This document shows positions 22,061 through 22,651 of a DNA stretch of 47,021 nucleotides, in pieces. Location of the stretch: sequence record PQ850597.1. One strand, 5' to 3'. Source of the stretch: Escherichia phage ChristineMuster_Bas80. The notes below the pieces were generated by a model. It worked only from the letters and a program-made list of their open reading frames with translations, searched no databases and had not been told where the DNA came from. Position 1 is the stretch's first letter; the number at the start of each line of letters is the position of its first letter. A program made the translations under genes and the position numbers.

Positions 22061-22137
22061 TGGTGGACACGGACGGATTTGAACCTTCAATCAGCCGATT
22101 ATGAGTCGGTTGCTTTAACCAATTAAGCTACGCGTCC
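22061..22137 (-). tRNA. tRNA-like gene, anticodon CAU (Met or Ile2), with encoded CCA
   Basis: Minus-strand 77-nt cloverleaf: 7-bp acceptor stem with one G-U, D arm GCTT/AAGC, anticodon loop CUCAUAA, T loop TTCAAAT, 3' CCA; one A-C mismatch in anticodon stem and one A-G mismatch in T stem. Confidence 0.5.
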
Positions 22138-22622
22138 ATAAGTGCTGGTTTAAGCATTGCCAGCGTGCTTTCTTAATATCCAGCCCCGTAACCCATACAT
22201 ACCCCTACATATGATTGCGATAATGCTGGATATTAAGTGTTGTGGTGGCCGGTGCTGATATCCGGCATAAGGCGCTTATTCGGCGGCGTCGAGCTTGCTT
22301 ATTCGCTTGAGCCATCCTCGTGAGTCAGCCACGTCCCACTGCGCATCAGCCTGCGCATTCACCACAACGGAAATAGCACTGGATAACCAAGCGCGCAGAC
22401 TCTTCACGATTATCTGCTCAATGCTCTTACCTGTTGTGTTCCCTGACTTATTAATCACACCTCAGGGACGCAGTGCGCCGAATTTGTTTACAAGGAATCG
22501 GAATACCTTGCTGACTTACAGGCTATTACGCCGCCATCAGAACAACATCATCGTTTGCATTTATCTTTGTGGTCAGTTTCTAAAAAGTCCGCAAAGTCGC
22601 TCACGAAAACCATCTGAAATAC

Positions 22623-22651
22623 AATCTACACCACAAAATAATCACTGTCAA
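22623..22651 (-). promoter_or_regulatory. Sigma70 consensus-like promoter TTGACA-17-TAGATT (minus strand)
   Basis: Reverse complement of 22646-22651 is TTGACA, 17-nt spacer, reverse complement of 22623-22628 is TAGATT; points toward the tRNA-like gene. Confidence 0.55.

Follow-up and report, generated by a model that had tools for sequence, protein, structure and literature searches.

A candidate phage RNA family that resembles the mRNA-like domain of tmRNA, found beside a tRNA gene in Escherichia phage ChristineMuster_Bas80

Introduction

Some phages are known to carry transfer-messenger RNAs (tmRNAs) or parts of them. An exhaustive survey of RefSeq phages in 2014 found tmRNAs only in mycobacteriophages and in Bacillus phage G, and mycobacteriophage DS6A keeps a partial, one-domain tmRNA that consists of the tRNA-like domain (TLD) only (PMC4131195). 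Another kind of phage- or prophage-encoded RNA, the GOLLD and ROOL families, is often found beside islands of tRNA genes; these RNAs, which are of unknown function, contain several pseudoknots as well as variable regions (PMC12286853). Here, we describe an element from the minus strand of Escherichia phage ChristineMuster_Bas80 (PQ850597.1) that can be compared with both kinds of RNA. (We refer to the full sequence of 47,021 nt as the window.) The element lies upstream of a tRNA gene, and its most conserved part, which we call the tag module, contains a short reading frame that resembles the tag of tmRNA.

A previous reading of this locus, made from the sequence only, had described a tRNA-like gene with its own promoter and a structured leader. 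The tag module, at 22409-22626, went unnoticed. By analogy to tmRNA, we propose that the RNA from the 5' part of this locus may engage host ribosomes or the tmRNA-SmpB rescue system, and that its frame may be decoded as a phage-specified tag template. We put the probability of this proposal at roughly 45%.

Results

A conserved leader with exchangeable tRNA genes

As the sequence-only reading had stated, a gap of ~670 bp separates a connector-type gene (which ends at 22032) from the major tail gene (which starts at 22703). The phage is one of a group of siphoviruses (~46-48 kb) that infect Escherichia, Salmonella, and Shigella; the group includes HC6, STGO-35-1 (genus Caminolopintovirus), ASO78B, and Bas77-81. 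The equivalent gap contains different tRNA genes in different relatives. STGO-35-1 has the same tRNA(CAU); HC6 has the window's tRNA with a single change, C34 to A, which gives the anticodon AAU (locus L001, 1962-2038); ASO78B has tRNA-Ser(GCU) and tRNA-Arg(UCU); and Bas78 has no tRNA there at all.

All four of these relatives keep the stretch from the promoter to the tRNA position, with middle segments that are swapped as cassettes. The first ~200 nt of the leader are 99% identical to HC6, ASO78B, and STGO-35-1 and 94% identical to Bas78, and the last ~130 nt are 96-99% identical among the relatives. The leader, at 96-100% identity, exceeds the structural genes on either side, which reach just 86-92% with the same relatives. 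Because the leader persists while the tRNA changes or disappears, and because its identity is above that of the flanking genes, we consider the leader to be the conserved entity and the tRNA to be its cargo. As judged from these comparisons, the leader represents an independent family of phage RNAs, rather than the leader of this particular tRNA, which would be swappable. The sequence-only reading had also suggested a structured non-coding RNA fused to a tRNA-like module. The structured RNA holds up, but it does not belong to this tRNA, as it occurs with other tRNAs or with none.

The tag module and its reading frame

The conserved core has these parts:

22409-22626, minus strand: the tag module, which forms the family's conserved core and is present once in the window (match to covariance model R1)
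22559-22610, minus strand: near-invariant 5' boxes GTTTTCGTG (22610-22602) and AGCGACTTTGCGG (22601-22589), followed by the pre-resume stretch TTTAGAAACTGACCACAAAGATAAAT (22584-22559)
22523-22558, minus strand: tag-like frame GCA AAC GAT GAT GTT GTT CTG ATG GCG GCG TAA TAG, or ANDDVVLMAA-stop-stop
22511-22540, minus strand: stop-codon hairpin CTGA-T-GGC GGCGTAATA GCC-TGTAAG-TCAG, with UAAUAG in or beside its loop
22478-22510, minus strand: pseudoknot A, with stem 1 CAAGG/CCTTG, whose loop CCGA pairs with a downstream TCGG
22440-22475, minus strand: pseudoknot B, in which CACT/GGTG is interleaved with TCCCTGA/TCAGGGA, with a conserved loop GTGATTAATAAG

The 5' boxes are nearly invariant across P1, PhaxI, Bp4, a lambdoid prophage, and the window. 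The frame that follows has 10 sense codons and no in-frame start codon, and an in-frame TAG lies 7 codons upstream. The six bases before its GCA are AUAAAU, which places U at -5 and A at -4. In tmRNA from E. coli, the bases at these two positions, U85 and A86, are experimentally defined determinants of the frame, and A86 is essential (PMC2481249).

Ten codons followed by a stop are found in all 129 instances that we retrieved with a sequence pattern and in all 132 instances of a wider set (32 distinct sequences). The encoded peptides have the form A-N(K)-D-x5-(A/V)-(A/P): for instance, P1 has ANDDLMMVAA, and other phages have ANDEQFLAVA, ANDDLMLMAA, or ANDSEVLMAA. Among close variants, the substitutions at codon positions 1, 2, and 3 number 10, 2, and 19. 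In the tag frame, synonymous and nonsynonymous substitutions are at 16:15, as compared to 5:19 in each of the other frames, and the replacements are conservative (D/N/E, V/I, M/I, and V/A). This looks like the substitution pattern of a decoded frame, in a small sample and in a region where codons 7-10 also form a hairpin. We also considered an upstream ATG frame of 21 codons in the window as a small open reading frame (ORF), but a 1-nt indel and stop codons interrupt it in P1 and in prophages.

Covariation within the module

We aligned 89 distinct copies of the module and built a covariance model (R1) from this alignment. Overall, 83.1% of cells pair, as compared to 31-46% if the partners are slid, and the covariation score was reached by 0 of 500 shuffles. 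In the outer stem of the stop-codon hairpin, 92.5% of cells pair, with compensatory GC/AU changes. Stem 2 of pseudoknot A has 97.2% of cells paired, and all 4 of its pairs have changed on both sides (CCGA/UCGG, CCAG/CUGG, CCAA/UUGG, and GUCG/CGAC). For pseudoknot B, variants of CACT/GGTG that we read from the alignment include CACU/GGUG, CAGU/GCUG, CAGU/ACUG, CAUU/GAUG, and CAGA/UCUG; in the MAFFT alignment, just 72.8% of the cells of this stem pair, and 1 of its 4 pairs has changed on both sides. Its stem 2, which corresponds to the short hairpin that the sequence-only reading placed at 22441-22467, varies between TCCCTGA/TCAGGGA, GCCC/GGGC, and GGCGGGAG/CTCCCGCC. We left stem 2 out of the pairing counts because MAFFT misaligns it.

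The G.U pairs are compatible with the minus strand only, which implies that the constraint is on a minus-strand RNA. By folding energy, the 479-nt leader does not stand out (z = -1.69 for the global minimum free energy, or MFE), so the evidence for structure is comparative and does not come from folding energy.

R1 gives 204 bits for the window (E = 2.7e-56) and 185 bits for reference P1. True members score 123-215 bits, and 87 control loci that share the 24-nt seed score at most 23 bits. (These controls are the chance matches, 87 of 91, from a scan of bacterial genomes with a relaxed 17-base pattern.)

The gap could contain debris of tRNA or tmRNA genes, left behind in a hotspot for recombination of tRNA cassettes, or else a small protein gene that was missed; we consider both to be extremely improbable. 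Degenerate cloverleaves do flank the module in Bp4, and some segments are mosaic, but debris should not be more conserved than the adjacent structural genes, have helices that are maintained by compensatory changes, or be retained in unrelated families of phages. As for a protein, the gap has ORFs of 60 and 36 amino acids on the minus strand and of 121 amino acids on the plus strand, and plus-strand ORFs are annotated in Bas78. However, cassette replacement disrupts the ORFs in relatives. We rejected the 60-residue ORF as a gene because it spans cassettes that are replaced in relatives, and both minus-strand ORFs cross segments that are replaced or interrupted, which agrees with the previous statement that the leader has no credible ORF.

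Distribution across phages, prophages, and phage-plasmids

With the leader alone as the query for BLAST, we found matches in 656 phage records, and the shared core begins at the predicted transcript start. This core of ~215 nt is present in phages that are otherwise dissimilar: P1, D6, Kuttervirus (the ~157-kb myoviruses PhaxI, Maynard, and PhiSH19), the N4-like Gamaleyavirus (Bp4), FelixO1-like phages, and lambdoid prophages. Among complete E. coli genomes, 1547 of 5426 (29%) have it, and so do 603 plasmids. Most of these plasmids (587) are non-mobilizable replicons of ~90-117 kb, which are P1- or SSU5-type phage-plasmids. In a collection with one genome per species, enterobacterial contigs were the only carriers. 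The distribution of the module is tied neither to any protein gene nor to the tRNA.

The contexts vary. In reference P1, the module is part of the leader of the ban operon, which is repressed by C1, and trnA and trnT lie downstream of it; the ~450 nt in which it sits are unannotated. An annotated "dicF-like region" that ends in a terminator (NC_005856, 68791-68892; L130, 8792-8893) abuts it (R1 match at 68872-69093). In an O26 lambdoid prophage, the module sits between the genes for the Q antiterminator and holin, and in Bp4 and PhaxI it is in gaps that contain tRNA genes. Across the 129 loci, the first tRNA, where there is one, is mostly 427-474 nt downstream of the core and on the same strand. 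In a few loci it is 409 or 622-900 nt downstream, and many loci have no tRNA.

No family in Rfam 15 covers the element in any of the contexts that we scanned. We considered known small RNAs from between Q and holin genes of prophages, but the probe sequences of PasA, PasB, PasC, as well as PasD are absent from all loci, and STnc100, AgvB, AsxR, and DicF gave no match in Rfam scans of the element. We found no description of the element or of its tag peptides in the literature, although papers that are available only by subscription may have been missed.

The setting does recall another kind of RNA. The element could be an architectural RNA of the GOLLD/ROOL type, which would self-assemble (into a cage, for example) near or around phage tRNAs or ribosomes, with the tag module as a structural domain. 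GOLLD and ROOL have the same context, in phages and prophages and often near tRNA islands, with tRNAs sometimes inside GOLLD (PMC12286853), and our element is likewise modular, with variable inserts at the tips of helices. But neither GOLLD nor ROOL gave an Rfam match at permissive thresholds in any context scanned, and just ~215 nt are common to all contexts, with the remainder being mosaic. This makes an architectural role very unlikely, in our view.

Relationship to tmRNA

The Rfam model tmRNA_permuted aligns to the tag in four contexts, with scores of 27.9 bits (window), 26.3 bits, 24.1 bits, and 20.9 bits. In the window, beta_tmRNA also aligns to the frame, with 16.4 bits. However, quite a few observations weigh against a tag template. 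First, all of the Rfam matches to tmRNA are below the gathering thresholds (27.9 vs. 47 bits for RF04321 and 16.4 vs. 84 bits for beta_tmRNA, RF01850); the best E-value over the whole window is just 0.067; and no further tRNA- or tmRNA-like match appears in the window at permissive thresholds. ARAGORN makes no tmRNA call in the window or in 128 related loci. Second, no tRNA-like domain encloses or accompanies the tag in the loci that we examined, and we did not find an aminoacylatable tRNA-like domain that would load the ribosome. A tRNA-like module does exist (see below), and it is downstream of the tag rather than around it. Its closing helix (GTTGTGGTG/CACCACAAC) is entirely Watson-Crick, with no equivalent of G3.U70, and no consistent CCA follows it; nor is there an acceptor strand 5' of the GTTTTCG box. 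Third, the window encodes no homolog of SmpB. Fourth, R1 does not match the sense strand of E. coli ssrA, and pairwise similarity to ssrA is at the level of shuffled sequences, so homology to tmRNA is not demonstrated. (On these same two results, we rejected a recent capture of the host's ssrA.) Fifth, the coding signature comes from only 31 substitutions, and the overlap of the hairpin with codons 7-10 confounds it in part. In most sequences, the pattern used for retrieval had also set codons 1-3 and the UAA at -5 to -3; the copies from P1, PhaxI, Bp4, and prophages, which were retrieved with BLAST, are free of that constraint. Finally, the minus-strand promoter is a consensus match only, and we found no expression data for the RNA.

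We also considered candidates for a hidden tRNA-like domain. We compared the 5' boxes to the D-loop and P2a of tmRNA, and none was found. A pairing of GCGACUUUG with CAAAUUCGGC was rejected because UCGG covaries with the loop of the pseudoknot instead. In Bp4, the flanking "tRNA-Ala(cgc)" and "tRNA-Cys(aca)" are degenerate cloverleaves.

Because we found no acceptor stem, no CCA end, and no SmpB gene, the element is not a tmRNA. Yet, as far as its sequence and comparative structure can tell, it reproduces the design of one of the two domains of tmRNA.

An RNA with no aminoacylatable end might act as a decoy instead of as a template. Specifically, a tmRNA mimic that is not translated, made of the mRNA-like domain and of closed tRNA-like pieces that cannot be charged, might titrate or redirect SmpB, ribosomal protein S1, RNase R, or a defence protein that is SmpB-like or senses tRNAs; the phage would gain because tagging is blocked or because its tRNAs are protected, and the tag frame would serve as nothing more than a binding surface. 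The module has tRNA-like hairpins around it, and some variants have a T-arm plus CAGCTCCAC, a motif from the 3' end of ssrA, closed by a loop. Also, the TLD-only RNA of DS6A was suggested to inhibit tmRNA by titrating SmpB (PMC4131195), defence systems with SmpB-like domains are known (PMC11090510), and fragments of t(m)RNA are used by a phage anti-CRISPR (PMC11662646). On the other hand, a pure binding surface would not be expected to favor synonymous or conservative changes in the tag frame only, or to keep a length of 10 codons and an in-frame stop across strongly divergent types of tags. We view a decoy as the main rival to a tag template, but as unlikely, if not as implausible as debris or an architectural role.

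Promoters and terminator

The predicted signals at the ends of the element are:

22623-22651, minus strand: predicted sigma70-type promoter, TTGACA (22651-22646), a 17-nt spacer, and TAGATT (22628-22623), with 10 of 12 matches
22656-22669, plus strand: extended -10 promoter-like sequence TGTGATATAATCAC (TG-a-TATAAT, 22658-22666), read from the sequence
22027-22056, no strand assigned: putative terminator, a hairpin and T-run between the stop codon of the connector gene (22032) and the 3' end of the tRNA

The TTGACA-17-TAGATT promoter at 22651-22623, which had been pointed out before, is present and is invariant in all close relatives, but the pattern is not above chance: promoter-like matches of this quality occur at 2 sites, as compared to 2.3 expected from shuffles. 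Because promoter matches are at shuffle frequency and the folding energy is unremarkable, what is above chance in this locus has to be decided by comparing sequences. The predicted transcript start is at ~22615-22616, or ~6 nt upstream of the GTTTTCG box.

In three contigs from IMG/VR (L025, L043, and L121), another type of promoter, TTTAC(T/A)-17-TAAGAT, has its downstream end 6 nt before the GTTTTCG box. This appears to be an independent fusion of a promoter to the same edge of the module. In sum, a sigma70-like promoter lies just 5' of the box in two unrelated contexts, and elsewhere a helix strand or a terminator precedes the box. The module thus has a defined 5' boundary.

At the other end, all four relatives that we examined have a perfect hairpin, GCCGC-TTCGT-GCGGC, followed by TTTAT. 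The hairpin in the window has one A.G mismatch (GCAGC...GCGGC), and a terminator scan gives no call. This hairpin is likely to be a bidirectional terminator that is common to both of the convergent units.

The plus-strand extended -10 sequence is 37 nt upstream of the ATG of the major tail gene (22703), back-to-back with the minus-strand promoter, and is invariant in relatives. Because this conserved sequence faces the ATG, the tail gene may have its own promoter inside the structural operon.

Structures 3' of the module

Downstream of the pseudoknots are:

22363-22438, minus strand: long helix CACAACAGGTAAGAGCATTG (22438-22419)/CAGTGCTATTTCCGTTGTG (22381-22363), capping a 37-nt variable insert (22418-22382)
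22239-22368, minus strand: tRNA-like module, predicted in the MFE and centroid folds, with a 100% complementary closing helix of 9 bp, GTTGTGGTG (22368-22360)/CACCACAAC (22247-22239), then the linker AAT; one hairpin that resembles a D arm, GCGCAGGCTGATGCGC (22356-22341), and one that resembles a T arm, GCCGGATATCAGCACCGGC (22266-22248); and 74 variable nt between the hairpins (22340-22267)
22144-22237, minus strand: 3' scaffold, with a 13-bp hairpin CTTAATATCCAGC...GCTGGATATTAAG (22237-22172, 40-nt loop) and a hairpin GCTGG-CAATGCTTAAA-CCAGC (22164-22144)

The long helix is represented by 28 distinct strand pairs across the family, with compensatory changes that include GAGCAT/GTGCTC, GGGCGC/GCGCCC, TGGCAC/GTGCCA, TAGTAT/GTACTA, and TTGCAT/GTGCAA. 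HC6 and STGO-35-1 have a different sequence in place of its cap. The pre-tag stretch ACCACAAAGATAAATGCA (22556-22573) is complementary at 13 of 18 positions to the 3' strand of the long helix plus GTTGTGGT (22361-22378), and it also resembles the 5' strand. Such an alternative pairing could mask the resume codon, although P1 does not conserve it.

In the tRNA-like module, the closing helix covaries (GTTGTGATG/CATCACAAC). The T-arm-like hairpin, which is one of the short hairpins that had been reported before (as 22249-22267; we place it at 22248-22266), has true T-loop sequences in relatives, such as GCCGGAGTTCGACACCGGC and GCCGGTTCGATTCCGGC. This module has no anticodon arm and no CCA, and Rfam does not recognize it as a tRNA at E-values up to 10. 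In some variants from lambdoid prophages and Bas78 (L013, at about +360 to +400 from the core; L002; and L012), the T-arm-like hairpin is followed by CAGCTCCAC. This is identical to the 3' strand of the acceptor of E. coli ssrA, but an ACGAAAC loop closes it, which gives a capped acceptor-like helix that is not chargeable. In PhaxI (L007, 2471-4800), the module opens an unannotated gap of over 2 kb, with several T-arm-like hairpins and a 16-bp helix; one of these hairpins is followed by AGCGGCTCCA (compare to the 3' end of tmRNA, CAGCUCCACCA). The gap in Kuttervirus may encode a much larger version of the RNA.

Identity of the 3' scaffold to relatives is 96-99%, also where these have different tRNAs or lack one, and the scaffold has G.U-compatible substitutions in HC6 and at two other loci (L114 and L070). 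The 13-bp inverted repeat that had been noticed within it (22172-22184 with 22225-22237) is indeed 100% complementary.

Given these structures and the usual position of the tRNAs, the leader might serve as a platform for expression and processing. It would provide a promoter, shield the untranslated transcript from Rho and nucleases, and present the tRNAs to RNase P, and the resemblance to tmRNA would be a coincidence or a relic. The tRNAs are usually at a near-fixed distance and on the same strand, promoters are fused to the 5' edge of the module in two unrelated contexts, and the P1 element is part of an operon leader. Also, the 3' strand of the long helix in relatives is CAGTGCTCTTTCC, of which the first 8-9 bases match what we take to be the boxA antiterminator of rrn operons, TGCTCTTTAACAA; in the window, this strand reads TGCTATTTCC. 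This likeness is probably a coincidence, because the boxA-like stretch is base-paired and covaries away from boxA in P1. More broadly, many copies have no tRNA downstream (as in Bas78 or between Q and holin in lambdoid prophages), and a platform leaves the 99% conservation, the two conserved pseudoknots, and the start-less, coding-type frame of 10 codons unexplained. We judge a platform to be distinctly unlikely as the only role of the leader.

The cargo tRNA

The last part of the cassette is:

22061-22137, minus strand: cargo tRNA, 77 nt, with anticodon CAU and an encoded CCA (ARAGORN and Rfam)

This is the single tRNA that ARAGORN finds in the 47-kb window. The cloverleaf had been recognized from the sequence, along with its CUCAUAA loop, encoded CCA, and two mismatches, which led to the suggestion that it might be defective. 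The Rfam alignment to the tRNA family (RF00005) shows the same loop, CCA, and mismatches (A27.C43 in the anticodon stem and A51.G63 in the T stem). The acceptor stem has 7 bp, GGACGCG/CGUGUCC, with one G.U pair, and ACCA is encoded. But with 63.4 bits, as compared to a gathering threshold of 29 bits (E = 5.9e-13), and with acceptance by ARAGORN, the tRNA is genuine and not defective, and is ordinary as tRNAs go.

The sequence-only reading had left the identity of this tRNA at Met or Ile2. ARAGORN labels it as Met, on the basis of the anticodon alone. The closest homologs in E. coli are annotated as tRNA-Ile; HC6 has the AAU allele; tRNA-Ile(AAU) of Bp4 (L008, 3463-3537) has an identical anticodon arm; the P1 ban operon also contains a tRNA-Ile2(CAT); and AUA accounts for 19% of the isoleucine codons in the window (12.7 per 1000 codons). 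In E. coli, AUA makes up ~7% of isoleucine codons, so its use in the phage is about three times the level in E. coli. For these reasons, the tRNA is most likely a tRNA-Ile2, which would read AUA after lysidine modification, rather than a tRNA-Met.

A tRNA-Ile with A34 is unusual in bacteria. The AAU tRNA-Ile of HC6 and Bp4 might bypass the requirement for lysidine synthesis.

Elsewhere in the window, at 28095-28158 on the minus strand, there is a sub-threshold match to the int-alpA RNA (RF02996; 29.6 bits vs. a gathering threshold of 35.8 bits; E = 0.031 over the whole window).

Discussion

A modular RNA cassette

In our view, the best explanation for 22027-22651 is that it forms one minus-strand transcription unit, a modular phage RNA cassette. 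Its predicted order is a sigma70 promoter, the tag module of ~215 nt, a scaffold (the long helix, the tRNA-like module, and the 13-bp hairpin), the cargo tRNA, and the shared terminator. A primary transcript of ~555 nt would be cut by RNase P at the 5' end of the tRNA (22137/22138). The released tRNA would boost the decoding of AUA, and the remaining RNA of ~480 nt would persist with a function of its own. The 5' module of this RNA would copy the design of the mRNA-like domain of tmRNA, with a frame that ends in Ala-Ala and two H-type pseudoknots.

We can also imagine a bolder version, which we hold only tentatively and think rather unlikely to be right in full. Here, at least five unrelated lineages of enterobacterial phages (P1-like, lambdoid, Kuttervirus, N4-like, and this group of siphoviruses) share an unrecognised RNA that is only the mRNA-like half of a tmRNA. 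Ribosomes would decode the phage-specified tag after some unconventional form of loading, which could involve the host's Ala-tmRNA and SmpB, the processed tRNA-like module, or entry at the A site as with an internal ribosome entry site. Together with its cargo tRNAs, the cassette would be a unit for translation repair or anti-defence that lets ribosomes go on working under attack by anticodon nucleases or mRNA interferases of the host.

A functional tag module would mean that P1, lambda-like prophages, and many phages that are candidates for therapy carry an unannotated RNA that targets ribosome rescue. It would be a natural mRNA-like domain of tmRNA that operates without a tRNA-like domain, and it would account for large blank gaps beside phage tRNA genes. 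Even under a conservative reading, this is a new and abundant family of RNAs, present in 29% of complete E. coli genomes, for RNA databases and for pipelines that annotate phages. P1 and the genetics of E. coli make the module directly testable. We describe the element as a tmRNA-like RNA without a tRNA-like domain; it could prove to be categorically new if trans-translation is not involved.

Comparison with known systems

The cargo tRNA is similar to other phage tRNA-Ile2(CAU), such as trnI of P1 and ileZ of Stx phages. It also has the anticodon CAU and the loop CUCAUAA, its pairs G30-C40 and A31-U39 match those of P1 trnI, and it is in a phage with elevated use of AUA. However, the overall identity to P1 trnI is only moderate, and the A27.C43 and A51.G63 mismatches are unusual.

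As with GOLLD and ROOL, the element is found in phages and prophages near tRNA genes and has pseudoknots and variable regions. But it is unrelated to them in sequence and structure, it is smaller, its hosts are Enterobacteriaceae, and it has a tag-like frame.

The closest likeness is to tmRNA. Both have an A-rich single strand, U and A at -5 and -4, and an alanine GCA codon of the resume type. In both, the frame is start-less and has 10 codons that begin with A-N-D and end with A-A (ANDENYALAA in E. coli). The phage tag lacks the tyrosine of what we take to be the SspB-binding part of the host's tag. The order of the parts is also the same: in E. coli, the UAAUAA stops are in the loop of helix 5 and are followed by pseudoknots (alignment of RF00023). 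In contrast to tmRNA, the module lacks an acceptor stem, an enclosing pair of D-loop and T-arm, a CCA, and G3.U70; we recognised no PK1 upstream of its tag; and the helix after its pseudoknots is a simple hairpin that does not enclose the tag.

Like the tmRNAs of the Bxz1-group mycobacteriophages and Bacillus phage G, and like the RNA of DS6A, the element would be a phage-borne RNA that derives from tmRNA or mimics it. It is found in enterobacterial phages and was not flagged by the 2014 survey of RefSeq phages. While the RNAs of the Bxz1 group and phage G are complete tmRNAs, and DS6A has the tRNA-like half, this element resembles the complementary, mRNA-like half.

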